DNA of 64,000 bases from Ignavibacteriota bacterium (lineage in GTDB: Bacteria > Bacteroidota > Ignavibacteria > UBA10030 > UBA6906). This document shows positions 18,881-34,532 of the stretch, in pieces; positions within the stretch are counted from its first letter, which is position 1; the number at the start of each line of letters is the position of its first letter. A model generated the notes under the pieces. That model made no database searches and was not told the DNA's origin. It saw only the letters and a list, made by a program, of their open reading frames with translations. The DNA lies in NCBI GenBank assembly GCA_963801355.1, contig CAWDEM010000008.1:416001-480000 (forward strand), in the 5' to 3' direction. The position numbers and the translations under genes were made by a program.

Positions 18881-19657
18881 ATGCCGGCCAAGAAGCCGAA
18901 GATCGCCGTGTTCAAGTTTGCTTCGTGCGACGGTTGTCAGCTCTCGCTCCTCGACGCCGAAGACGAATTGCTGGCTGTTGCGGCCGCGGTGGAGATAGCG
19001 AATTTCCCCGAGGCAAGCCGGAGAGTGCTCAAAGGTCCCTACGAGGTCGGCCTCGTCGAAGGCAGCATCACGACTCCGCACGACGTCGAGCGCATTCGGG
19101 GCATCCGCAAAATGTGCCGCGTGCTCATTACGATCGGTGCATGCGCCACCGCGGGCGGAATCCAGGCCCTCCGGAACTGGAAGGACGTGAAGGACTTCAC
19201 GCGCCTGGTCTACGCATCCCCCGAGCACATTTCCACACTGGACCGTTCGATGCCGGTGGGTTCGTATGTGCATGTGGACTTCGAGCTCCGAGGGTGTCCA
19301 ATCAACAAATACCAGTTGCTGGAGGTTCTGAATGCATTTCTCAATAAGCGCAAGCCGAACGTGCCGACGCACTCGGTATGCGTTGAGTGCAAACTGAGCG
19401 GGACGATCTGTGTCATGGTAGCTAAGGGCTTGCCCTGTTTGGGTCCGGTCACGCAGGTCGGCTGCGGTGCGCTCTGCCCCTCATTTGACCGGGGGTGCTA
19501 TGGCTGTTTTGGCCCGATGGACAATCCCAATCCCCCTGCGCTGAGCAAGCATTTGCGTGACATGGGTGAGTCGCGGCGCGACATCATGCTCCTGTTCCGC
19601 GGATTTAATGCATACGCGGAAGCATTCCGGAAGGAGAGCGAAGCCCATGAAGAATAG
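18881..19657 (+). CDS. hydD: Group 3b hydrogenase delta (small) subunit
   Basis: [28 protein letters not shown]...GCYGCFG. Confidence 0.88.
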
Positions 19658-20930
19658 AGTGATCAAGGTCGATACGCTCGCACGTGTCGAGGGGGAAGGA
19701 GCCGTCTATATTAAGATCAGCGACGGCAAAGTGGTCGACACAAAATTCCGGATCTACGAGCCGCCCAGGTTTTTTGAAGCATTTCTCCGCGGCCGCAACT
19801 ATGCTGAGGCTCCGGACATCACCGCGCGCATCTGCGGCATCTGTCCCATCGCCTATCAGATGAGTGCGGTCCATGCGATCGAAGACGCATTCGAGATCAC
19901 CGTAGGCGGACAACTGCGCGCACTGCGCCGGCTCATCTATTGCGGCGAGTGGATCGAGAGCCATGTACTGCATGTGTACATGCTCCACGCACCCGATTTT
20001 CTGGGGTATGAGGATGCCCTCCTGCTGGCAAAGGACAAGCCGGATCTGGTGAAGACCGCTTTGCGCATGAAGAAGATCGGCAACGAGCTGGTACGCGTCA
20101 TCGGCGGTAGGGAAATCCATCCCATCAATGTCAAGGTAGGTGGATTCTACCGCGTACCCCGGAAGAAGGATCTCAAGGCGCTCGTGGATGACCTGACGTG
20201 GGCGCGCGATCGTGCGGTGGAGACTGTCAGACTCACGGCAACATTCGAATTCCCTGATCTGGAACAGGACTACGATTTCGTCGCTCTGCGTCATCCAGAT
20301 GAGTACCCGTTCAACGGGGGGCGCTTCATCTCAACGCGCGGACTCGACATTGCGATCCGGGAGTATGAGTTCCATTTTGAAGAGCGCCATATCCCTCATT
20401 CAAATGCACTGCATTCCGTCGAGAAGGGGATTGGCGCGTACCAGGTGGGCCCAATGGCGCGTTTCAATCTCAACTTCGATCTGCTGACGCCGATGGCCCG
20501 GCAGGTTGCACAGGACGTCGGTGTGCTGCCGCCCGTCAAGAATCCGTTTAAGAGCATTGTCGTGCGGAGCATTGAAACGGTGTATGCCTATGAGGAGGCG
20601 TTGCGGTTGATCGCCGAGTACGAAGAGCCCGACGCCTGTTCGGTGAAAGTCGAGCCACAGGCGGGACTTGGGTTCGGTGCAAGCGAGGCACCCCGGGGCA
20701 CCCTCTACCACCGCTACCGTCTCGATGATGAGGGCATGATTATCGATGCGAAGATCGTGCCCCCCACGGCGCAAAACCAGCCGTCGATTGAATCGGACAT
20801 GCGGAAGTTTGTTACGGCAAACATTGACATGGACCGGGAGAAACTGACCTGGCGCGTCGAGCAAGCGATCCGAAACTATGATCCGTGCATTTCCTGCGCA
20901 ACGCATTTCGTCAAGATTTCGTGGGAATGA
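19647..20930 (+). CDS. hydA: Group 3b [NiFe] hydrogenase large (alpha) subunit
   Basis: ARVEGEG, L1 RICGIC, EAPRG, L2 DPCISCATH followed by a short cleavable tail. Confidence 0.92.
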
Positions 20931-24134: not shown

Positions 24135-24194
24135 TGAATTACACCCGCTCGTAAACAGTAGTTCACGCCGCGCCCTTTGAACAGGGCTTCACTC

Positions 24195-24782
24195 ATGACC
24201 ACCAATGATTCGCACCGATGCGCGCAGCCGGCCCTTTGGGCTGCGGCATACAAGAAGTATTTCCGGCTCTGGGTCAACCTTGCACTCACCGTATACTTCA
24301 ATGTAGCAGAAGCGGAAGACGTGGTGCACGGGGTTCTGCAATCCGCAATGCTGCGGGAGGGGGAGCCGTTCGAATCCCTGGAGCACATCCGGAACTATGT
24401 TGCCAAGGCTGTTCTGAATCGTGCCGGCCAGAGCAGGCATCGAGCTGAGCGGATGAAGACGTGGGATGAGCAGGCGGAGGGACTATTCGGTGTTGGCCCT
24501 TCGTCGGAGGAATTGGAAGACAGGGAGCAGATGAGGATTCTCAGAAAAGTGCTTGTCGGCTTGAACAGCAGGGACTACGAAATCGTCAAATTGCGCTATT
24601 TCTTGGGATTGACATTCCAGGAAATCTCGGATCATCTGGGTTTGGCGTTATCGACGATAAAGAGCAGGGAGGAATCGGCGTTGCGGAGGATCCGGCGGCA
24701 GCTTCGCAAATACGGCGTTGAGGCTGTAATAATAGGGGGGAGAAAGGCGCACCATGACAAAGGAAGTAATCGACCGGGATAG
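24195..24782 (+). CDS. ECF-type RNA polymerase sigma factor
   Basis: Region 2 EAEDVVH...YVAKAVLNR and region 4 LNSRDYEIVKLRYFLGLTFQEISDHLGLALSTIKSR. Confidence 0.88.
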   Translation: MTTNDSHRCAQPALWAAAYKKYFRLWVNLALTVYFNVAEAEDVVHGVLQSAMLREGEPFESLEHIRNYVAKAVLNRAGQSRHRAERMKTWDEQAEGLFGVGPSSEELEDREQMRILRKVLVGLNSRDYEIVKLRYFLGLTFQEISDHLGLALSTIKSREESALRRIRRQLRKYGVEAVIIGGRKAHHDKGSNRPG

Positions 24783-25515
24783 GTTGATCGCGTTTGCCCG
24801 CGGGAAGTTATCGCCTGAAGAGTCCGAGCGTGTGCTGGCAGCGGTAGAGGCGGACGAGGTTCTCTCGCGGGAACTCGAAGAGGTGTTGCAGCTGATGCGG
24901 GCCACGGAGGCATTGGAAAATGAGAAGAGAGACGCTCACGGTCGACTGACCATTGGTGAGCCGGCGCTCAAGTACGTGTTGCGTATTGCGGCGGCGGTGG
25001 TGGTGTTGTTGGGAGCTTCTGTTCTGGTCAGTCAGCTCACGAAGGGGCCATATCACGATCTTGCCCGTGTTGACAATGTGGACCTCGGTGTACGCTGGCG
25101 CGGCGAAGCTGAAGAGCAGATCGAATGGGCGAGGCGTGAATTTGTGGGGGGGGACAAAGATGCTGCGATCCGGGAGTTGGAGCGGATAGTACAGATGCAG
25201 CCGGTCGGTGAGTCGATGTCGGTCGTGCACCTGATGGCGGGGCAGATGTTGCTGGCAACAGCGGAGCGGAGCACATTCGGTCTGTTCCCCCGGTACGACA
25301 GGGAACGGGTGGCGCGTGCCATGGATCATCTTGGGCTCGCAGCGCAGTCGACGAACAACCGGGTGGTTGAGGAGGCACATTGGTTGCGGATGAAGGGATT
25401 CTTGATGCTCGATGAACGCGAAGATGCGAAGATGGAGGGGGAAGAGGTGAAGAGAATGGGTGGGGAACATGATGTCCAGGCTGTAAAACTCCTTGACGAA
25501 ATCCACGATCATTGA
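24754..25515 (+). CDS. Probable single-pass anti-sigma factor with extracytoplasmic TPR-like domain
   Basis: N-terminal LIAFARGKLSPEESERV...D..LSRELE anti-sigma-like helix, TM segment IAAAVVVLLGASVLV, helical-repeat C-terminus. Overlaps the sigma gene. Confidence 0.7.
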   Translation: MTKEVIDRDRLIAFARGKLSPEESERVLAAVEADEVLSRELEEVLQLMRATEALENEKRDAHGRLTIGEPALKYVLRIAAAVVVLLGASVLVSQLTKGPYHDLARVDNVDLGVRWRGEAEEQIEWARREFVGGDKDAAIRELERIVQMQPVGESMSVVHLMAGQMLLATAERSTFGLFPRYDRERVARAMDHLGLAAQSTNNRVVEEAHWLRMKGFLMLDEREDAKMEGEEVKRMGGEHDVQAVKLLDEIHDH

Positions 25516-25522
25516 CCTTGAA

Positions 25523-28500
25523 ATGAATTCACTTGTCAAGTGGCTCACCATATGCCTCCAGGGCCTGGTCTGCATAAGTGACACATTTGGAACCACAGAT
25601 CCGAATTCAGTGCATGATCACATCGCCCTTCGACAAATGGTTGGTAAAGGCATGTTTGCGCAAGCCGCTTTGCGCTGCGAAGAACTTATAAAGAGATATC
25701 CTGAATACATTAGCCTTTATGAGACGTATGCTGAGATTTCTCAGTACAATGGGACACTGGCGGGAGGTGTGGGCTTCCTGGAGGGCCGATTTGACGGGAC
25801 TTCGCGGGGCGCGTTTCTTCACTATGGTTTAGGTTGCATGTACATGCGACTGGGTAGTTATGACTCGGCCCAGAAGGCATTTCAATACGCCTTGGACTTC
25901 GGAATTCGTGATCCAAGATTCGTGAGAGGGTTTGTCTACGCCTATGAGCGTGTAAACGGTGTCTCTCGTGCGGTCTCACATTATCAGGTGCTTTGCCAGA
26001 GGAAGCCAGATCGCGCTGATCTGTGGTATGGTCTGTGTCTCACCTATTGGGGAAGAAGTGACTATGTGAACGCGCTAGACGCAGCGCGAAGGGCGGCGAC
26101 ATTGGTCCCAGAAGAATTGCATTTCAGAATCGCAGTAGGCGTTCTCCTGTTTGCGGCTGGTCAAGATGAAAGGAAGGAGAACATTATTTCTGCCTTGATC
26201 GATTCTGCGAAGAGTCGCTATGAATTCGAGAGCCTTGGCTTGTTGAGGTCAACCCTCATTCGAGCATTCATACAAGAACAGCGTCTCGCTGAAGCGCATG
26301 CGCAAGTGGAGCTTCTGCTCAGCGAAATGTCTGCCATTGGAAACCTTCGGTGGCTAGGTTGGTCGCAAATACGTCTTGCTGAGCTCAATTTCATGGAAGC
26401 GGATTTCATTTCTTCACTCGGCAACGCAAGGAAAGCAATTGAATCTGCACGAAAGGAAGGGGACCATGATCTTGAAGGAGACGCAGGTTCTCGCGAGTTT
26501 GATTGCTTTATGGAGCTAGGCCGTTTTCGAGAAGCAATACAAAACGCACAGGTCCGTCTCCCCCATCGGATGCAAGAACAAGTCAACAAGCCGGCAAAGG
26601 CGTTTGCAGACAATGCCCGGGCGTTCATGGAGGTTGGTGAGTTTGAGATCGCGCTCGAATATGGAATAAGAGCGATCATGGCACTGGAAGGAGTTGCTTT
26701 TGATCCGACCGTTGCAGCCAGTGTCCACTCAACCCTTGGCCAGATCTACATGGGATTAGGACAATTCGCTGAGGCGCAGCGTCAATTTTCCCTCGAAGAG
26801 AAGATCATTCGTGCTCCGCTTTTTTCGCTACGGGATATCGCAGTTCTTCGGGGAAATCAAGGGAATTGCTACATGTCCCAAGGTCAACTGGCAAAAGCCG
26901 GAGCTGCATTTCGCGAGCAACTTGCTCTTGTTCGTAAGACCAAGTATTCGAGGGAGAGGGTATATGCCCTCGTAAACTTGGGCAACTACCACAAGGCACT
27001 TCGACATTTTTGGCGTGCGAGGGAGTACTTCCTATTGGCAATGAGTGAAGGTCAGCAAATGTCTCTCAGAAAGGTAGTTGCTCAAGCTGCGCACAACTTG
27101 GCGGCTCTGTCAGAGCATTTGGGTACTGAAGCGGAGACGATTGATTGGCTAAAAAAGGCGATTTTTGAATGGGAGAGAACAAATTGGCTGGCCAAGAGCG
27201 GACTTCTTGGCATTCGAGGTGCGGACGGAATAATCGGCGATTTCGAGCGGCTCATAACGCTACTTATGCGTGCCAATCGCAAGAGAGAAGCCTATTCAGT
27301 GACGGAGCTATACAATTCGAGCAACGGATCACTGCTGCTCAGTCGTGGACAGGCGAGACAAGTCGCAGCTTCGTACCCGATCCATCGGAGGTCAAGAGAT
27401 GAGATCTCGAACAGGGTCGAACGAGGCCGACTGAAGGCGTATGTTCAACCCGAGAATCAAATGCCCAGTTATGTCCGTTCGATTGACGAATTCGCTGGTT
27501 TGCTTATGGGGGGCGAAGAGTCATTCTCGGGGGAGGACTCGGGGGATGCAAACTATCGTGAAAGCGAATCGGCGTCAATTCCGATGAATGGACAGACTTC
27601 GGACGAAGACATCGTCGATGGTGACGTCGCAGTCTTGTCGTATTTTGTCGGTGAGAACCAAGCATTCTTGTTTGTGGCAACGAGAGATACGCTTGAAGCT
27701 TTTCCCCTGGCAACGACGCGAGGGCGCATTAGAACTCTGATCAAACGTGTGGGGAGTTTCATCGATTCATCTCCGGTAGAATCGGCAGTCCTCTTGAATA
27801 GACCCTATTTTAAGAAAGCGACAGCAGAGACTCTTTTGACTGTACTCTTGTCTCCGGCATTTGGGATTCTGCCATCTGTGAAGCGACTCATCATAATCCG
27901 TGGTCACGACCTTGAAGCTCTACCTTTTGAAATGTTGCCCTCAACACTACTTGGCAATTTTAGCTTACCCGAACCCAAACCAAGATTCTTGATCGAAGAG
28001 TACGAGATTTCATACAGATATTCAGCGAAGCTACAGCAGCCGAATACAAATCCAAAGGATGCCAGCCAGCCATTCCTCTTTGCGCTAGGGTGCAGCACGA
28101 TGCCAGTGCCCTCAAATGTCTCGAACACTGCTTCCGCTGTTAGGAAGAGTCCATCGAAGCCAACTGATGACGAGGTGCTACCTGAAATCATCTCAGAGCT
28201 CAAATGGTTGAAATCGGAATTCGGTGATTTAGCCGTAGCTGCGATTGATGGTGCGGCAAGCAAAGAGGTTTTTCTGAAGCACGCAGAACGCAGCGCTATC
28301 ATTCATATTGCCTCCCACTCAAGGGCGTGCAATCAACACAGAGAATCAGGCTCAATCATGTTATCACCGGCCCAGCGAAACGAAGCGTCGGATTCTTTGA
28401 GCGTTCTTGATGTTTTAAAGATGAAAACTTCAGCCAAGCTTGTAGTGCTCAGCAGTTGCCGCACAGCGACCCCTTTCGAGGCTTACTCAAGGATTGACTT

Positions 28501-28837
28501 TGTCAAGTCATTTCTCATAGCGGGCGCAGGCAGCGTGATTGCCTCCGAATGGGACGTCGATGACGAGAGTACGCTCAAGCTGATGAAGGTATTTTATACG
28601 CATTTGAAGACTGGTGAACGGAAGAGCAAGGCGTTACAGGATGCTAAGAAGGAATTGATTGCGGCGGGGATGTGTAATCCTTATTACTGGGCATCGTTCA
28701 TTCTCGTGGGAGATGAAAGGGAGATAGCATTCCCGACGAAATCGAAGATTCCTGCTTCGATTTCATGGGTCATCGCCGGCGTTGCCATCTTCATTCTTTG
28801 CGTGACCGTATTTGTTCATGAACGTGCGAGCAATTAG
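25523..28837 (+). CDS. TPR-repeat CHAT-domain (caspase-like) protease with C-terminal membrane anchor
   Basis: Long TPR array, IIHIASH and LVVLSSC dyad motifs, FLIAGAGSVIASEWDVDD, PYYWASF, C-terminal hydrophobic helix. Confidence 0.88.
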   Translation: MNSLVKWLTICLQGLVCISDTFGTTDPNSVHDHIALRQMVGKGMFAQAALRCEELIKRYPEYISLYETYAEISQYNGTLAGGVGFLEGRFDGTSRGAFLHYGLGCMYMRLGSYDSAQKAFQYALDFGIRDPRFVRGFVYAYERVNGVSRAVSHYQVLCQRKPDRADLWYGLCLTYWGRSDYVNALDAARRAATLVPEELHFRIAVGVLLFAAGQDERKENIISALIDSAKSRYEFESLGLLRSTLIRAFIQEQRLAEAHAQVELLLSEMSAIGNLRWLGWSQIRLAELNFMEADFISSLGNARKAIESARKEGDHDLEGDAGSREFDCFMELGRFREAIQNAQVRLPHRMQEQVNKPAKAFADNARAFMEVGEFEIALEYGIRAIMALEGVAFDPTVAASVHSTLGQIYMGLGQFAEAQRQFSLEEKIIRAPLFSLRDIAVLRGNQGNCYMSQGQLAKAGAAFREQLALVRKTKYSRERVYALVNLGNYHKALRHFWRAREYFLLAMSEGQQMSLRKVVAQAAHNLAALSEHLGTEAETIDWLKKAIFEWERTNWLAKSGLLGIRGADGIIGDFERLITLLMRANRKREAYSVTELYNSSNGSLLLSRGQARQVAASYPIHRRSRDEISNRVERGRLKAYVQPENQMPSYVRSIDEFAGLLMGGEESFSGEDSGDANYRESESASIPMNGQTSDEDIVDGDVAVLSYFVGENQAFLFVATRDTLEAFPLATTRGRIRTLIKRVGSFIDSSPVESAVLLNRPYFKKATAETLLTVLLSPAFGILPSVKRLIIIRGHDLEALPFEMLPSTLLGNFSLPEPKPRFLIEEYEISYRYSAKLQQPNTNPKDASQPFLFALGCSTMPVPSNVSNTASAVRKSPSKPTDDEVLPEIISELKWLKSEFGDLAVAAIDGAASKEVFLKHAERSAIIHIASHSRACNQHRESGSIMLSPAQRNEASDSLSVLDVLKMKTSAKLVVLSSCRTATPFEAYSRIDFVKSFLIAGAGSVIASEWDVDDESTLKLMKVFYTHLKTGERKSKALQDAKKELIAAGMCNPYYWASFILVGDEREIAFPTKSKIPASISWVIAGVAIFILCVTVFVHERASN

Positions 28838-28891
28838 GGCAACAGATCGAATTCGTCCCTTGAGAAGAATAGGCAGGACAGGTAAGCTTGG

Positions 28892-29839
28892 CTAGAGGGT
28901 GAGTGTGAAAGGCGATATCGAAAAAGAGAGTAGCATGATGAACAAACAGATAACTGCAAGTATTTTGCGACGTGTATCGAGCTGATGTAATTCCAGGGTG
29001 GAAGTCTCCCTTCGGCCGGATCGTTTGAGGAATATGAACAAGACTATCGCCCAAACGAGCCAACCGCTCCAACCGAATTCACAATCAACACCGAACAGCG
29101 GAAGAAATCCCAACAAGCCGATAAGACATAGAAACGCCAGAACGATCTTCCCAAACATCTTGGCTTGTTTGGGAAGCAACGCACCTACAACGTGCCCACC
29201 GTCCAATTGGCCAACTGGAATGAGATTCATGGCGGTCACCAAAAGACCAAACCAACCTGCACAAAGGAACGGATAGTGGTAGATCTCATTCATGGGCGGT
29301 ATGAAATCAGCTTGGCCCGCCACAATTTTGCCCAACATGGAATACAGCAAGGGAGCTCCAAAAGTGAGCCCACCTTTGGGTATGGATGGCATGCCAACAT
29401 ATTCTGGATGGATCGAGTACAAGTAGTCGATCGTGGGGAGTGTGGTAAAGCCATAAAGTAGGCAGAGGACGCTAGCCACGAAGCCTGCAATTGGTCCAGA
29501 TGCACCGATGTCAAAGAGCGCTCTCCTCGAATCGATAGACGATCTCAGACGAATTACTGCACCTAATGTGCCAAAGGGGAAAACACCTCCGAGCATGAAG
29601 GAGGGAAACGGTAGGAAGTAAGGCAGGGTTGCATCGACCTTGTGAGCACGCGCGGCAAAATAATGTCCGAACTCATGAGTCAAAAGGATAAAACAGACAG
29701 CAACACCGTAAGGGATTCCCCGTTTGACGTCAGCCAGCTCGTAAGGGTTAAGGTTGAGCCACTGAACTCCCGCAAAGACTGTGGTGACGAAGGTGAGGGA
29801 GAAGAGGATCACGTGAAGGGCGGCTCTCTTCAGCTGCAT
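28892..29839 (-). CDS. Site-2 protease (M50 intramembrane metalloprotease)
   Basis: HEFGH, GTLGAVI, FDIGASGPIAG, NLIPVGQLDGGH, multiple TM helices. Confidence 0.92.
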   Translation of the reverse strand: MQLKRAALHVILFSLTFVTTVFAGVQWLNLNPYELADVKRGIPYGVAVCFILLTHEFGHYFAARAHKVDATLPYFLPFPSFMLGGVFPFGTLGAVIRLRSSIDSRRALFDIGASGPIAGFVASVLCLLYGFTTLPTIDYLYSIHPEYVGMPSIPKGGLTFGAPLLYSMLGKIVAGQADFIPPMNEIYHYPFLCAGWFGLLVTAMNLIPVGQLDGGHVVGALLPKQAKMFGKIVLAFLCLIGLLGFLPLFGVDCEFGWSGWLVWAIVLFIFLKRSGRRETSTLELHQLDTRRKILAVICLFIMLLSFSISPFTLTL

Positions 29840-30023
29840 AGATCTCAACTCTCCTGCAGGTCGCCCATGTGCGTCAAGAAGTACGAGTGTGGCGTTGCTT
29901 GGACCGCGTCTTCAAATGCCACCCACTATCTCTCATGCCCTTGGGAGATTTGAAATGAGAACTACTTGCACAGCTGGCTGCTCTGACAGCGGGGGCACTT
30001 GTGATGATCGAGCGCACTACTCG

Positions 30024-30188
30024 TCACGGCCGCGGTGGATTCAGGGTTGTTGGTGCACCGCTTGTTTTGGGACGGGGGGGATTCAATGTCGTCGGTGCAC
30101 CGCTCGAGTAGGCGATCGCCCAATTGATCGCCAGGATACCAGCTACAGCCAAAACCAATGAGCGGAACTTGCGGGCGTTGCGGCTCAT
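30024..30188 (-). CDS. 54-aa secreted precursor peptide with two identical SGAPTTLNPPRP cores
   Basis: AAGGAGA ribosome-binding site 4 nt before the ATG, Sec-type signal peptide ending A-I-A, and a repeat with 8 synonymous and 0 non-synonymous differences. Confidence 0.85.
   Translation of the reverse strand: MSRNARKFRSLVLAVAGILAINWAIAYSSGAPTTLNPPRPKTSGAPTTLNPPRP
30027..30104 (-). repeat. Two 36-nt coding repeats (30104-30069 and 30062-30027), 42-nt period
   Basis: agcggtgcaccgacgacattgaatcccccccgtccc versus agcggtgcaccaacaaccctgaatccaccgcggccg. Confidence 0.9.
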
Positions 30189-30399
30189 GTTTTCTCCTTC
30201 TTGATGCTTACTGATTATGATTCTTCGGATCGTTTGCTCGATGAGTGTCGGACAAAAAAGAATACACCACACCCTGGTTTGCCTGCTAACACTGCTGCGA
30301 GATGTAACTGGAGAACAATGAAGCAATGATCGAGGGTACTACCACGTTTCCGCCAACCGCCTGAGAACGGCCTGCAGAATATTGTTCAACTGTTGGTCA

Positions 30400-30428
30400 A
30401 ATATATACATCCTCAAGGCTAGTGTCAA
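30400..30428 (-). promoter_or_regulatory. Near-consensus sigma70-type promoter facing the peptide gene
   Basis: Minus strand TTGACA-N17-TATATT(TG). Confidence 0.7.
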
Positions 30429-30466
30429 GTTTTTTCTTCTTTTTCGCACAAATTCACGCAAATTCC

Positions 30467-30481
30467 TGGCGCGATATTTGC
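30467..30481 (+). promoter_or_regulatory. Putative sigma54 -24/-12 element
   Basis: TGGCGCG-ATAT-TTGC, with exact GG-N10-GC spacing. Confidence 0.5.
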
Positions 30482-30490
30482 GTGCAAACG

Positions 30491-30506
30491 TGTGATTTGG
30501 CTCACA
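30491..30506. promoter_or_regulatory. Palindromic operator TGTGA-N6-TCACA (CRP-type, also TGT-N10-ACA)
   Basis: TGTGATTTGGCTCACA, between the two divergent promoters. Confidence 0.6.
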
Positions 30507-30542
30507 AATTCGCCTATTTCATAAATTTTTGCGTTTCTTCGC

Positions 30543-30571
30543 TTGACTTAACACCATCCCCCTCCTATATT
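30543..30571 (+). promoter_or_regulatory. Putative sigma70-type promoter of the membrane protein / AAA+ regulator operon
   Basis: TTGACT-N17-TATATT. Confidence 0.65.
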
Positions 30572-30599
30572 GCAGGCAGCCACAATAGCGGCTGGGAAC

Positions 30600-31766
30600 G
30601 TGAACCTTAGCGGCAAAAATATCTTCAGGATCTGGATTTTCATCATGGCTGTCTACACCGTCCTGCTCCTATCCCTGGAGCACGAGCCGGTGAGCGTGTC
30701 TCTCTTCGCCCTGATTTCTATGGAGACGCTCAGCTTTCTGATTACTGTCGCCATCATACGCCGTGAGACGAGCACAAAGAACAAGATGATATTTGTCAAC
30801 TTTGCACTGGTCTTCAGTACGGCGTTCCTGGGGATGATTGGTTCGTTTATTACACATTCGATGTTTCCCGATAACCGCTTTGCTAAACACCTTTTCGACC
30901 AATATACCTCATACGGGGCCTATGCATTCTTCCTGGCCTTCAGCATAGGGTACCTAGCGATCGACGTTCTCTTTCGTGACTTCAGAATATTCGCAAAGTA
31001 CAGCGTAACCCTCCTGGTTGTCGGCGGACTCTTTGTGCTCTACTTCCACCCATTCCTGACGGACCCGATGCACTCTTACCACACTCAGGACATTCGGGAC
31101 TGGAAGACCGTGGATTCCTTGAATAGTGCCTTCATCAAGACGCGGGGATACGGACCCAACGCTGAGGAACTTGCTCAAACGAGCCAGTTGTACGTGTACG
31201 ACGGGAAGGACACGGTAGCCGTGCTTCAGCCTGAAGCAAGAGAACGCCGCATCGCCCAGCTGCTGCCCTACGTCGGCGACAATTACGGTCCGCTCGTGAA
31301 CAAGCCAATCTTGCAGTACACAATTCAAATGTCAATCGTCGGCATCATTTTTTCGTTGCTCTTTTTTGGCTACCTCTACATGAAAGATCCTCCCCAGGGA
31401 GCATATATCGAAAAGATCATGTTCCTGTGGCTCGTTTTCTGCAGCATGGAGGTACTCCATAACTGGGGGGCCATCAACGCTGTCGAGTGGGAAACGCTGT
31501 CAAGCATCTTCTCGACAGGTCAATATGCTTCAAATGTGGCCCTCGTGTTCATTGCGCTCTATCTTTCGCTCCGACTACGGTTCATCACAAGTGTCAAGGG
31601 GGAATTTTACGAACAGGAATTGTCAGAACGTCCGGCAGGGGTTACGCGCTGGCGCGATACGCTGGACAATATGGTGGTGGAAAGCTTCTTCAACCGGCAG
31701 ACAATCATGGGGAGGCTCTTTGCCGTGCCGGCCCACCAGCAACACCAACATTCACAACCTCGGTAG
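30600..31766 (+). CDS. Polytopic membrane protein of unknown function (about 8 TM helices, one large loop)
   Basis: Hydrophobic segments judged by eye. The start is uncertain (GTG 30600 or ATG 30645) because the TTG at 30570 overlaps the -10 box. Confidence 0.75.
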   Translation: MNLSGKNIFRIWIFIMAVYTVLLLSLEHEPVSVSLFALISMETLSFLITVAIIRRETSTKNKMIFVNFALVFSTAFLGMIGSFITHSMFPDNRFAKHLFDQYTSYGAYAFFLAFSIGYLAIDVLFRDFRIFAKYSVTLLVVGGLFVLYFHPFLTDPMHSYHTQDIRDWKTVDSLNSAFIKTRGYGPNAEELAQTSQLYVYDGKDTVAVLQPEARERRIAQLLPYVGDNYGPLVNKPILQYTIQMSIVGIIFSLLFFGYLYMKDPPQGAYIEKIMFLWLVFCSMEVLHNWGAINAVEWETLSSIFSTGQYASNVALVFIALYLSLRLRFITSVKGEFYEQELSERPAGVTRWRDTLDNMVVESFFNRQTIMGRLFAVPAHQQHQHSQPR

Positions 31767-31799: not shown

Positions 31800-32816
31800 A
31801 TGGAGCATAGGGAACAGAAATCGGCCGACGATAAGAAAGGCCGGCCGCACTTCGAATACCCCATCGTCGGGAAAAGCAAGGCCGTCGATCAACTCATCAA
31901 ACAGATTTCGTCGCTGGCAAAGAACCGCCGGGATGTGCTGATCGTGGGCGAAGCAGGCGTCGGCAAGGGGGCCGTCGCAAAGGATATCTATATCAGCGGC
32001 AAGGGCTTTGGCAACAACGGACCGTTCTTCTCCATTAACCTCTCCGTAGCGGACGACCGTGAGCTGGATTCACTCCTTTTCGGCCACGACAGAAGCGGAC
32101 CCGGCGTCGGCTCGGCTCCACAACAGGGCATACTGGACCAGGGAGAAGGGGGCACGATCGTCCTGGAAGAACTGGAGGAAGCCAGCTTCCGCAACCAGCG
32201 CAAGGTCATTACGTTCCTGTCCGAACGTGTTCACCACAACGGACGACCTGCCACCGATCTGCGAGTCGTCATTACCATGAAGAGCGATCCTGCACTGCTC
32301 CTGCAGGAGCACAAACTCATGGATGAAGTCGCGCAACGCCTCCGGGAATTTGAGATCGTCGAAATCCCCCCGCTGCGCGAGCGGCTGGAGGATATCCCGA
32401 TCCTTGTCAAACACTTCAGCTCCGAGATCTGCAAAGAACTCCAGATGCCGGAACTGGTCATCGATATCAACGCGATCGACGTCCTTGTGGCTCAGCCGTG
32501 GCGCGACAACATCCGCGGCCTGAAATCGGTGATAGACAAGTGCGTGCTGCTTTCTCGCGACGGACGCTTCATCCTGCCTCCAGAGCTGGTCGACGAGAAG
32601 TCGGAAGTCGCGAAAATGATCAACAACATTCTGGCAGGCCAGGAATTCATACTCGACAAGTCACTGGATGTTATCGAGAAGGGCATCATCGAACGATCAC
32701 TTGAGAAGTTCGGCTTCAATCAGTCGCGGGCGGCTCAGTTCCTTGGTATGACGGAACAGACCTTCCGGTACAAACTGAAGCGATTGGGAATTGCCAGCGC
32801 CCGAACCAGGGCGTAG
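31800..32816 (+). CDS. Degenerate sigma54-interaction (NtrC-like AAA+) Fis-HTH regulator without a sensor domain
   Basis: GEAGVGK Walker A, PPLRERLEDIP, NQSRAAQFLG HTH. GAFTGA motif absent. Confidence 0.85.
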   Translation: MEHREQKSADDKKGRPHFEYPIVGKSKAVDQLIKQISSLAKNRRDVLIVGEAGVGKGAVAKDIYISGKGFGNNGPFFSINLSVADDRELDSLLFGHDRSGPGVGSAPQQGILDQGEGGTIVLEELEEASFRNQRKVITFLSERVHHNGRPATDLRVVITMKSDPALLLQEHKLMDEVAQRLREFEIVEIPPLRERLEDIPILVKHFSSEICKELQMPELVIDINAIDVLVAQPWRDNIRGLKSVIDKCVLLSRDGRFILPPELVDEKSEVAKMINNILAGQEFILDKSLDVIEKGIIERSLEKFGFNQSRAAQFLGMTEQTFRYKLKRLGIASARTRA

Positions 32817-32871: not shown

Positions 32872-32908
32872 AACCAGCCCTCGCACTACGAGGGCTGGTT
32901 CTTTTTTT
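32872..32908 (+). terminator. Intrinsic terminator
   Basis: AACCAGCCCTCG-CACTA-CGAGGGCTGGTT followed by CTTTTTTT. Confidence 0.85.
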
Positions 32909-34010
32909 CCCCACTGAAACTCTGTTCCTTCCAGACCACCGTCCGGCCGGAGAGAACTATCACTGGAAAAATCAGCACGTACAAGAAATAGTAGACCTCA
33001 TACACGGGGAAAGCAGGGAGCAAATCCCACCTCCTGAATGTGTAAAGCGACGGCAGACAGAGGAGGAGATCCACACCCACCTTCAATAGTGCGGCCGTCC
33101 AGACCAGGGGCCCCGGAGCAAAAACCACACCGGCCACCAATCCGGCATGCAACAGCCAGGCTCCAGCGAACATCGCAATCGTCTGCAGATTCATGTCGCG
33201 CCCACCCGTGAACCAGCGCTTTCGTTGACGGTAGAGCTCACGCCAGGTGGGGCACGCCTCGCTTTCGACAAGTGTCGCCGGATCAAGGGGAAAAATGGCT
33301 CGATAACGGGTGGTGGCCGTGACCGCGTGGAACAAGGCATAGTCCTCGGTGATGCTGAAGGGAATGCCCTCGTAGCCTCCCACGGCATCGTACGCCGCCT
33401 TTCGCACCGACAGATTGTTGCCAACGGCTGTCACGGGGAAACCCAGACGGTTGGCTCCGGCAGCGACGGAGAACAGGGCAAACCAATCGAGAGTCTGCAT
33501 TGCCTCGAACAACGTCGCCGATCGAATGGCTGTAAACCCGGGCACAATGCCCACTGACTCATCGGTGTAATACTTCACCGTTTCGTCTACCCAGCCCGGT
33601 GGCACCGCGCAGTCGGCGTCGGTCATCATGATGATCTCGCCGGTTGCAATAGCCATGCCCTGCTGTAGCGCGTTCGCTTTTCCGCGGAGATGCCCCGTTC
33701 CCGGTTGTGCATTGTGCAGCCTCAGAAACGGGCAGAGGTCAAGATACTCACGAACGATGTCCGCTGTTGCATCCGTGGAACGGTCGTTTACGAGAATCAC
33801 CTCCAGAAGCTCCCGGGGATACCGGAGACGCGTGACGGCATCGAGGCAGCGCCGGATATTCTTTTCTTCATTGCGGGCAGCGATGAGCACGGAAACCCGC
33901 AGACGAATTCCACTGTTATGTGGATAACGGGCAAAGGCAGCGCCGACGGTGAAAAACAACATCCCGGCTGCGTACGCTACCGCAAGTATCAGGAGGGTCA
34001 GAACAAACAT
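32886..34010 (-). CDS. Family 2 glycosyltransferase, membrane-bound
   Basis: IAARNEE, NDRSTD, GKANAL, TDADC, TED and QRKRW motifs. Confidence 0.9.
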   Translation of the reverse strand: MFVLTLLILAVAYAAGMLFFTVGAAFARYPHNSGIRLRVSVLIAARNEEKNIRRCLDAVTRLRYPRELLEVILVNDRSTDATADIVREYLDLCPFLRLHNAQPGTGHLRGKANALQQGMAIATGEIIMMTDADCAVPPGWVDETVKYYTDESVGIVPGFTAIRSATLFEAMQTLDWFALFSVAAGANRLGFPVTAVGNNLSVRKAAYDAVGGYEGIPFSITEDYALFHAVTATTRYRAIFPLDPATLVESEACPTWRELYRQRKRWFTGGRDMNLQTIAMFAGAWLLHAGLVAGVVFAPGPLVWTAALLKVGVDLLLCLPSLYTFRRWDLLPAFPVYEVYYFLYVLIFPVIVLSGRTVVWKEQSFSGEKKNQPS

Positions 34011-34166
34011 GCGTTGCGGAATTTTCGCGATTTGAATTTTTTTCAGAATACAGAATTCCCCCAGCGAATGCAAGCTGCAGCAAACTTGTCTTTCTGCCAA
34101 GTTTTCCTATATTTGTATCGTCTAAAGCACTCTCACCAACTATCCATAATTGTGATGGAGGTTCCA

Positions 34167-34532
34167 ATGAAACTCAGGTCAATGCTGGCACTTGTTGCCC
34201 TCGTGCTGTTTGCAGGAGTCGCCTTTGCACAGTCGATCGAGACCGGTGAGTTTACCGCTTCCCCCAACCAGGAAGGTTTTTCGCTGAATACCGGGAAGGG
34301 TGATCGAGTATATATTGAGACCATCGCTTTTGACAAAGGCTTCAAGGCACCCCCCAAAGTCCATGTGTTCCTCTCCGGATTCGATGCAAAAGGCGATGAG
34401 ACCGGCGTCGTGCGGGTCCACGTCAGCGCGTCAAAGGTCACCAAGACCGGCTTCACACTTCGCGTAAAGACCTGGGGTGAGAGCATTGTCGGCTCCGCAT
34501 GGGGCACCTGGATGGCAGTTGGTGTGAGGTAA
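34167..34532 (+). CDS. Secreted H-type lectin domain protein
   Basis: Signal peptide, IAFDKGFKAPPKVHVFLSGFD...VTKTGFTLRVKTW...WMA pattern, GGAGG ribosome-binding site. Confidence 0.75.
   Translation: MKLRSMLALVALVLFAGVAFAQSIETGEFTASPNQEGFSLNTGKGDRVYIETIAFDKGFKAPPKVHVFLSGFDAKGDETGVVRVHVSASKVTKTGFTLRVKTWGESIVGSAWGTWMAVGVR

Follow-up and report, generated by a model that had tools for sequence, protein, structure and literature searches.

A conserved Ignavibacteria gene family for a predicted exported precursor of tandem identical peptides, with a putative sensor–regulator pair alongside

The Phr peptides of the Bacillus Rap–Phr (RRNPP) systems are small Sec-exported pre-peptides whose mature unit is C-terminal; some phr genes carry several identical or nearly identical copies of the autoinducer, and the signal diversifies between lineages (PMC5199041). 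Here we describe a gene of similar layout in a 64,000-nt stretch of DNA from an Ignavibacteriota bacterium (contig CAWDEM010000008.1, positions 416,001 to 480,000), the whole of which we call the window. The gene encodes a leader followed by two identical 12-residue cores. Judged by comparison with its orthologues, it is a real, conserved Ignavibacteria family without annotation, and its cores are kept identical within each gene by purifying selection on the peptide. The product would be the precursor of a small exported peptide in several identical copies. Our favoured reading, to which we give a probability of about 0.4, is a Sec-exported multi-copy peptide signal that would be sensed by a neighbouring sensor–regulator pair.

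The Ignavibacteria peptide differs from Phr in several respects. It has no sequence similarity to Phr, its units are of 12 proline-rich residues rather than 5–6, and its partners are an M50 protease, a protein with eight transmembrane (TM) segments that we call MEM398, and an AAA+ regulator. Its hosts are Ignavibacteria, which are taken to be diderm, and not Firmicutes. No cognate cytoplasmic TPR receptor of the RRNPP kind stands beside it among the conserved neighbours checked, where a TPR-CHAT protein is adjacent at only 11 of 80 loci.

A second point of comparison is provided by the Eep/RseP pheromones of enterococci, streptococci, listeria and staphylococci, in which an M50 enzyme matures hydrophobic-leader peptides or clears signal peptides (PMC10202637; PMC8144685). 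There the enzyme is a housekeeping site-2 protease (S2P) and the substrates are lipoprotein signal peptides or short precursors encoded elsewhere, whereas in Ignavibacteria an extra, PDZ-less M50 paralogue is encoded directly 3' of the precursor, cleavage is only predicted, and the conserved repeated product sits outside the membrane segment. The staphylococcal agr system consists of the AgrD precursor, the AgrB membrane protease, the polytopic AgrC receptor and the AgrA regulator. The Ignavibacteria locus recalls it in combining a precursor, a membrane protease, a polytopic candidate sensor and a DNA-binding regulator, in its two divergent units and in hypervariable residues of the putative signal. 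However, Pfam and NCBIfam searches of the module's neighbours reveal no AgrB-family protease, histidine-kinase receptor or other agr component; the candidate sensor has no kinase domain, the regulator is of the AAA+/HTH_8 type, and the cores come in tandem copies without a cysteine for a thiolactone.

Tandem identical short peptides with basic processing residues between them also occur, in other lineages, in fungal alpha-factor and other Kex2-processed repeats, cyanobactins, apidaecin and plant CLE precursors, but the surroundings of the Ignavibacteria gene yielded no enzyme of the Kex2 type, the PatA/G type or any other kind known to process or modify such peptides. The core pattern x-x-V-P-x-x-P-D/N within a 12-mer may resemble the plant CLE dodecapeptide; the resemblance is probably convergent. 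None of the module's parts is homologous to the Phr, fungal pheromone, apidaecin or CLE systems, although these share its general design of short identical peptides repeated in tandem behind a signal peptide. The peptide family and MEM398 have neither a name nor a Pfam domain in the databases searched; a literature search turned up nothing matching the family, its core motifs, MEM398 or the pairing with a dedicated M50 protease. To our knowledge, bacterial peptide signalling is known almost only from Gram-positive lineages, and we know of no peptide quorum-sensing module in the Bacteroidota/Chlorobi/Ignavibacteria group, for which no specific search was made.

The precursor gene, its family and its repeats

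The gene in the window, single-copy in its genome, encodes a 54-residue protein, MSRNARKFRSLVLAVAGILAINWAIAYSSGAPTTLNPPRPKTSGAPTTLNPPRP, on the minus strand between ATG 30188 and the stop codon at 30026..30024 (Table 1). An earlier note on this DNA had placed the start at this ATG behind an AAGGAGA ribosome-binding site, and had described a leader with a basic n-region, an h-region and an A-x-A site, followed by tandem identical cores whose eight nucleotide differences are all synonymous. These descriptions stand. The Shine–Dalgarno motif is present 4 nt from the ATG, the equivalent ATG starts the conserved protein in the 16 orthologues examined, the leader matches and A-x-[S/A] is near-invariant in the family, and the layout of leader plus cores recurs in more than 70 orthologues with two to seven copies. 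Most of these orthologues have a Shine–Dalgarno sequence of the GGAG type (or GGGG) a few nucleotides 5' of their ATG; in one of them (L020) none is seen before the chosen ATG. We rejected the 100-residue open reading frame (ORF) call from TTG 30326 because the orthologues begin at the equivalent of ATG 30188 and the in-frame upstream stretch is not conserved. The eight differences between the two copies fall at seven third positions and one first position (TTG/CTG). When eight random substitutions were simulated, all were silent in 3 of 200,000 trials, and the corresponding value of (S/36)^8 is 6.7e-5.

An initial search of 61 relatives gave full-length matches in other genera, whose translations share a uniform design: a conserved leader of type MSRTAKRFRSLVITIIAIAATNIAISFA, two to four tandem cores (for example SGVATTPDAPRP, SGVGTVPDAPRP and SGVPIIPDSPKP) and then a stop codon. 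A profile built from 16 members (alignment A1) was run against 277 Ignavibacteriales-type metagenome-assembled genomes (MAGs), all of the window's order. At E ≤0.001 it matched 128 of them and 110 of the 210 of high quality, with eight of nine families represented. Of 201 genomes sampled across the class, 177 lie outside the order, and just one of these matched; it carries the same module. The profile recovered 164 clusters from 5.8 billion proteins, and the 120 clusters listed have no Pfam domain and no name beyond 'hypothetical protein'. Related public records (80) are labelled as Ignavibacteriota, Ignavibacteriales or Bacteroidota MAGs, which places the family in Ignavibacteria. Three MAGs of the window's own genus, 93–96% complete, have neither the peptide nor MEM398.

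That the ORF arose by chance, or is part of some longer repetitive surface protein, is favoured by nothing beyond the ORF caller's 100-residue call from the upstream TTG, and we regard this explanation as hardly credible. The orthologues in 128 of 277 genomes conserve start, stop and context, most of the 16 examined have a Shine–Dalgarno motif, and homologous small ORFs at syntenic loci, which the earlier note had named as a test, were found in the same neighbourhood across the order. The search for longer forms, the other test named there, returned two proteins only: the start of one is mis-called, and the other is extended 3' beyond the cores. Neither supports a fragment.

Some genomes have two tandem peptide genes with slightly different cores, for instance SGPTAPEPPRP beside SGPTAPPPPIP, or an extra stand-alone copy away from the module (loci L132 and L139; genomes G082, G161, G171 and G019). 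The stand-alone copy of G019 (L034) lies among unrelated neighbours and gave no lead.

At least two units were found in 71 of 76 distinct genes: two in 19, three in 19, four in 27, five in 4, six in 1 and seven in 1. Between adjacent units of these 71 genes the proportion of synonymous differences (pS) is 0.545 and that of nonsynonymous differences (pN) is 0.025, a pN/pS of 0.045, with pN biased down somewhat by a unit finder that tolerated up to two mismatches per 10 residues. Silent divergence per unit pair ranges from 1–2 up to 10–11 differences, a pattern consistent with one unit being re-expanded from time to time and then drifting silently while the peptide is strictly selected. With silent divergence high and pN/pS between repeats so low, the peptide is the object of selection, and the earlier proposal that selection acts on the peptide rather than on the DNA extends to the family.

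The 235 units that could be anchored on P-[RK]-P give the consensus S-G-V-P-[TIV]-[LI]-P-D-S-P-R-P, with three or four prolines in most units. Units recur every 13 residues at 95 of 162 junctions, and K serves as the spacer 72 times and R 20 times; in longer spacers a basic residue still precedes S-G, and spacers between otherwise identical cores range from 0 to more than 15 residues. In 64 of 80 distinct proteins the chain ends exactly at P[RK]P, with the stop codon directly after. That the chain stops exactly there, that each S-G has a basic residue in front of it and that long spacers are tolerated all argue that the cores are discrete units.

Between species, the cores vary. There are 53 distinct cores among 60 proteins, five different ones occur among six species of one genus, and pairwise identity at core positions 4–6 is 0.18 versus 0.44 for the leader. 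In P0123, a protein closely related to that of the window, the leader is nearly the same, yet the core is SGAPSSMQGWPKP, present four times. This concentration of species-specific change in three residues makes positions 4–6 the candidate specificity determinant.

The same features bear on whether the product is a secreted antimicrobial or competition peptide, bacteriocin-like and amplified by tandem copies. Insect apidaecin is made from multipeptide precursors, and such a role would suit the proline-rich, P-R-P-containing, multi-copy character of the Ignavibacteria product, its strong promoter and its diversity between species. But known proline-rich antimicrobial peptides are strongly cationic, whereas the net charge is 0 in 161 of the 235 units and +2 or more in only 7. 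The conserved module contains no immunity gene or ABC exporter, and the gene occupies a single chromosomal locus that is syntenic across the order, not a mobile, patchy bacteriocin island. We consider an antimicrobial role quite improbable.

The leader of the window's protein is made up of MSRNARKFR, LVLAVAGILA and INWAIA, with N22, A24 and I25 near-invariant; across the family the Asn corresponding to N22 is found in 71 of 75 sequences, Ala at −3 in 70 and Ser or Ala at −1 in 74. Its basic n-region, h-region of ~10–15 residues and small residues at −3 and −1 agree, on a rule-based assessment only, with a substrate of Sec and signal peptidase I. The leader would thus be a cleavable Sec signal peptide by classical rules, but it is conserved beyond the needs of export. 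Site-2-protease substrates have a single N-in/C-out membrane segment with a helix-destabilising residue; here, positive charges precede the hydrophobic segment and an Asn lies inside it in 71 of 75 sequences.

The conserved module and its proteins

The module consists of the peptide gene followed by the M50 gene and, divergently, of MEM398 and the AAA+ regulator. Among 17 loci of ~20 kb from relatives, the M50 gene is adjacent at 16, MEM398 at 15, the regulator at 14, a GT2 glycosyltransferase at 14 and the CHAT gene at 8. A second set of 80 loci was anchored on MEM398, of which 57 have at least 1 kb of upstream sequence. In these 57, a hidden Markov model finds the peptide at 55 loci and inspection by eye at the remaining two, which have divergent versions (one with three repeats and one with a single degenerate unit); the M50 gene is present at 54. 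MEM398 is followed by the regulator at 78 of the 80 loci. Of the order's 277 genomes, 127 have both peptide and MEM398 and 126 have neither; one has only the peptide, and 23 have only MEM398, which in several of these is at a contig end. We give these counts without a test statistic because related genomes are not independent.

The earlier note had reported only proteases next to the gene. The M50 partner is indeed constant, at 54 of 57 loci, but the CHAT protein is adjacent at only 11 of 80, and a membrane GT2 glycosyltransferase lies three genes away, so that the product, proposed in that note to be an unmodified signal peptide, may be modified. The divergent pair of 8-TM protein and AAA+ regulator was overlooked there; of all the context, it speaks most strongly for a role in signalling.

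In families other than that of the window, two further same-strand genes come after the M50 gene in 28 of 41 long loci (L073, L082–L089, L102–L147), one for an Ig-like lipoprotein with a 'choice-of-anchor X' domain and one for a BNR/Ycf48-like beta-propeller of ~500 residues.

The M50 protein of the window has HEFGH and NxxPxxxLDG motifs and matches PF02163 at E = 2.5e-20; HExxH and NxxPxxxxDG are intact in 28 of 28 sequences. Its gene is one of three M50 loci in the genome, additional to that for a 441-residue RseP-like protein, and it encodes no PDZ domain. A sequence search of the PDB with this protein returned no match at E ≤1.

MEM398 has no Pfam or NCBIfam match, and no Pfam family is found consistently across its 11 members. 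Since the TTG 30570 listed as its start is overlapped by a TTGACT-17-TATATT promoter (30543–30571, plus strand), translation probably begins downstream, near GTG 30600. Among 1.84 billion representative proteins, 176 are relatives, and the 150 listed are all ≤409 residues with no fused forms among the matches listed. An AlphaFold2 (AF2) model (predicted local distance difference test score 80) has eight TM helices with an insert of ~80 residues between helices 5 and 6 and a cytoplasmic C-terminal tail that is of low confidence or disordered in the model yet highly conserved. By the positive-inside rule the insert would be extracytoplasmic; it is the most variable part of the protein (mean p-distance 0.64 versus 0.53 for the rest). 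A Foldseek search of the PDB with the model gave nothing at E ≤0.001; we rejected the best matches, GPCR chains at E = 0.03–0.3 and TM-score ~0.3, as generic helical-bundle likeness. Protein Atlas searches with MEM398 and the peptide gave scores of 0.79 or less and no lead. A complex prediction for the regulator with the MEM398 tail (residues 336–398) scored 0.00 with controls not run, a result that is neutral on binding.

The regulator belongs to the NtrC family. Like sigma-54 enhancer-binding proteins it has an AAA+ sigma-54 interaction domain and an HTH_8 domain, but it lacks their GAFTGA motif, and no conserved −24/−12 promoter was found in the intergenic regions. It has no receiver domain, its NCBIfam pspF match (E = 1.4e-42) is below the cut-off, and in the 12 orthologues examined GAFTGA is found in none and E-E stands at the usual D-E position of Walker B. 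It probably does not act through sigma-54.

The frequent GT2 neighbour is a polytopic, PgaC/HpnI-like protein that falls below every NCBIfam cut-off; the SunS model matches it at E = 0.008 against a 350-bit cut-off, and its link to the module is uncertain. This enzyme bears on the possibility that the precursor is that of a multi-core peptide that is made on the ribosome and modified after translation (RiPP), with cores that are modified (for example hydroxylated or glycosylated) by enzymes encoded nearby or elsewhere, the M50 enzyme as leader or processing protease, and a natural product as the outcome. A leader with tandem identical cores is the layout of a multi-core precursor, the leader is conserved more than export alone requires, a membrane protease adjoins at 54 of 57 loci, a GT2 enzyme is often nearby, and the Bacillus subtilis yydFGHIJ epipeptide operon includes an M50 protease. 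On the other hand, the conserved neighbours scanned contain no radical-SAM, YcaO, lanthionine, ATP-grasp, P450 or 2OG-oxygenase enzyme, the GT2 protein is generic with only the weak match to the SunS peptide S-glycosyltransferase, and the leader resembles an ordinary Sec signal, so that cytoplasmic modification would have to precede export. We consider a RiPP improbable.

Promoters, palindrome and terminators

The near-consensus promoter that the earlier note assigned to the peptide gene is present, matching the sigma-70 consensus at 11 of 12 positions, but it is not adjacent to the gene. Its distance from the ATG, ~205 nt, implies a long 5' untranslated region (UTR) of roughly 200 nt. An Rfam scan of 28500–31500 gave no matches at E ≤1, so that the long 5' UTR holds no known riboswitch, and its sequence is not conserved among orthologous loci. 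A similar promoter was found at 53 of 77 orthologous loci with a loose threshold and at 20 of 77 with 11 of 12 matches, counts for which there is no shuffle control. Among the 13 sequencing runs listed as carrying DNA words (shares ≤0.15), none is an RNA run, and nothing relevant was seen among listed papers on Ignavibacterium or Melioribacter transcriptomes.

Between the divergent promoters, upstream of the peptide gene, lies the perfect palindrome TGTGATTTGGCTCACA, of the form TGTGA-N6-TCACA. The pattern GTG-N8-CAC is present in 19 of 42 loci versus 1.1% of shuffles, with other spacings in at most 1 of 42, and mostly lies 52–60 nt upstream of the −35 hexamer; it was chosen after viewing the alignment, so that this test is not blind. 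Exact inverted repeats upstream of the promoter are modestly enriched, at 12 of 42 loci versus 24 of 210 shuffles.

A second perfect inverted repeat, CACGCAAAT-N12-ATTTGCGTG, is found at 30455–30484, just upstream of the −35 hexamer of the peptide promoter. It overlaps a sigma-54-like TGGCGC-N5-TTGCG (30467–30482, plus strand) that is not conserved elsewhere. This single match is within chance expectation for the window (30 found versus 32 expected). A sigma-54 promoter for the peptide gene or the MEM398 operon is not supported, as 64 intergenic regions contain no conserved TGGCAC-N5-TTGC.

Beyond the peptide gene's stop codon, the next 120 nt contain a hairpin of at least −15 kcal/mol in strength at 57 of 70 loci versus 4 of 70 shuffles. 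These hairpins are GC-rich and of the intrinsic-terminator type, 44 of the 57 having a T-rich tail, and they begin 20 to more than 60 nt beyond the stop. Their position invites the explanation that the product is a regulatory nascent peptide, whose proline-rich sequence would stall at R-P-stop and control terminator read-through into the M50 gene; SecM, MifM and TnaC-like 'monitoring substrate' stalling peptides are the precedent. A small ORF with an export signal does lie directly 5' of a membrane-protein gene and end in R-P-stop, with the hairpin between the two genes at those 57 loci. However, identical selected repeats, variable copy number and hypervariable core residues are unexpected of an arrest peptide, most hairpins lie too far downstream to be covered by a ribosome that pauses on the stop codon, and the window's genus lacks the hairpin. 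We judge this explanation very improbable.

The signalling reading and the features around it

If the favoured reading is right, the precursor would be inserted N-in/C-out and its leader removed by signal peptidase at A-x-[S/A], cut or cleared in the membrane by the dedicated M50 enzyme, or both; the invariant Asn of the hydrophobic segment would aid M50 cutting. We infer the M50 step from the maturation of peptide pheromones and the clearance of signal peptides by S2P enzymes, both of which have been described (PMC10202637; PMC8144685). The exported repeat chain would be cut at its K/R spacers into identical dodecapeptides, which would serve as an extracytoplasmic signal read by MEM398; MEM398 would in turn control the AAA+ regulator, and the species-specific tri-residue at positions 4–6 would give the signal its specificity. 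The signalling reading also draws on Phr, for which pre-peptides with intragenic repeats of the autoinducer unit are described (PMC5199041). That these parts amount to an undescribed cell-to-cell system of Ignavibacteria, in which each translation yields 2–7 identical dodecapeptides, an M50 protease is devoted to them, the 8-TM proteins form a new receptor family, the regulator without GAFTGA acts at a sigma-70 promoter and three residues define species-specific 'pherotypes', is possible but doubtful.

Several observations weigh against peptide signalling. Transcription, translation, export, cleavage and binding are all predicted only. Among its conserved members the module has no protease that would cut specifically at K/R or after proline, no way through the outer membrane was identified, and the module was not found in 85 of the 210 high-quality genomes of the order. 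Partial Mantel tests of the core against the MEM398 insert, the M50 protein and the regulator detected no co-variation, a result of little weight either way given its low power (n = 23, core distances near saturation). The regulator lacks GAFTGA in 12 of 12 cases, and no conserved sigma-54 promoter was found in the 64 intergenic regions. The palindrome fits a CRP/FNR-type consensus as well as a TGT-N10-ACA enhancer site, and it was not found upstream of MEM398 paralogues. The window and its congener have no terminator hairpin (−9.9 and −11.8 kcal/mol), and the peptide and M50 genes may be co-transcribed there. Lastly, paralogous pairs of MEM398 and regulator (L160–L167, in other genomes of the order, 27–32% identical to the window's MEM398) lack a peptide or M50 gene at 8 of 8 loci. 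Because these paralogues stand alone, the sensor pair does not need this peptide, and the peptide operon could be its target and the peptide not its ligand. The pair looks like a self-standing, undescribed sensor–regulator family.

These paralogues lend weight to an explanation in which the product is an uncleaved small envelope protein, N-terminally anchored or released whole, that acts as a multivalent proline-rich ligand or spacer, is turned over by the M50 protease and is under envelope-stress-type control by MEM398 and the regulator. The hydrophobic segment and N-in topology would suit a signal anchor equally, the regulator is PspF-like in having no sensory domain, and the peptide and regulator operons run divergently from a region with a palindrome common to both, an arrangement that a regulated target would be expected to have. 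The Ig-like lipoprotein and BNR/Ycf48-like propeller of 28 of the 41 long loci would be candidate binding partners. The cores themselves argue for excision instead: the 64 of 80 proteins that end at P[RK]P and the basic residue in front of each S-G point to discrete units, the wide range of spacer lengths fits excision better than it does a fixed multivalent geometry, and species-specific variation is concentrated in three core residues. We regard the envelope-protein explanation as rather unlikely.

The evolutionary signature of this family, with identical repeats, near-saturated silent divergence and species-specific change in three residues, is clean, and it identifies a small secreted peptide as what selection acts on, in a diderm lineage that is largely uncultured and common in soils, sediments and groundwater. 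If the signalling reading is true, a circuit like agr has been assembled independently from unrelated parts, and the peptide is short enough for synthesis, which makes the signalling hypothesis directly testable. Should signalling fail, the locus would still be a good case for the co-evolution of tandem peptide repeats, a candidate natural substrate for a PDZ-less site-2 protease and a new pair of membrane sensor and AAA+ regulator.

Table 1. Coordinates in the window of the precursor gene, its control elements and the neighbouring genes
Feature	Position	Strand	Remarks
TPR-CHAT protein, 1114 residues	25493..28837	+	convergent with the M50 gene
M50 (site-2-type) metalloprotease	28892..29848, likely start ATG 29839	−	downstream of the peptide gene
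Precursor gene, leader then two cores	30024..30188	−	ORF translation, orthologues
Core copy 2, SGAPTTLNPPRP	30027..30062	−	36 nt; stop codon immediately after
Spacer K-T	30063..30068	−	single K or R in most orthologues
Core copy 1, SGAPTTLNPPRP	30069..30104	−	36 nt
Leader, residues 1–26	30111..30188	−	n-region MSRNARKFR, hydrophobic h-region, c-region N-W-A-I-A
Shine–Dalgarno AAGGAGA	30193..30199	−	4-nt gap to ATG 30188
Sigma-70-type promoter TTGACA-17-TATATT	30400..30428	−	11/12 matches, ~205 nt upstream of the ATG
Perfect 16-bp palindrome TGTGATTTGGCTCACA	30492..30507		between divergent promoters; putative regulator site
MEM398, 8-TM membrane protein, 398 residues	30570..31766, start probably near GTG 30600	+	no known family
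NtrC-family AAA+ regulator with HTH_8	31800..32816	+	PF00158 E = 4.7e-23; PF02954 E = 2.1e-12
Membrane GT2 glycosyltransferase	32886..34100	−	Pfam; frequent neighbour, three genes from the peptide gene

The TPR-CHAT gene is probably outside the core module, being adjacent to it at 8 of 17 and 11 of 80 loci, all within the window's family and not throughout it. Genes for an ECF-type sigma factor, a 253-residue protein of no family and the TPR-CHAT protein stand in a row on the plus strand (24177–25515 and 25493–28837), in what looks like a separate ECF/CHAT unit. The ORF called at 33690–34532 (plus strand) encodes a small protein that looks secreted and ends in an H-type lectin domain; it runs into the GT2 gene at the latter's 5' end, and its start is probably later. 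Upstream of the region studied, a gene resembling those for NiFe-hydrogenase large subunits lies at 19557–20930 on the plus strand.

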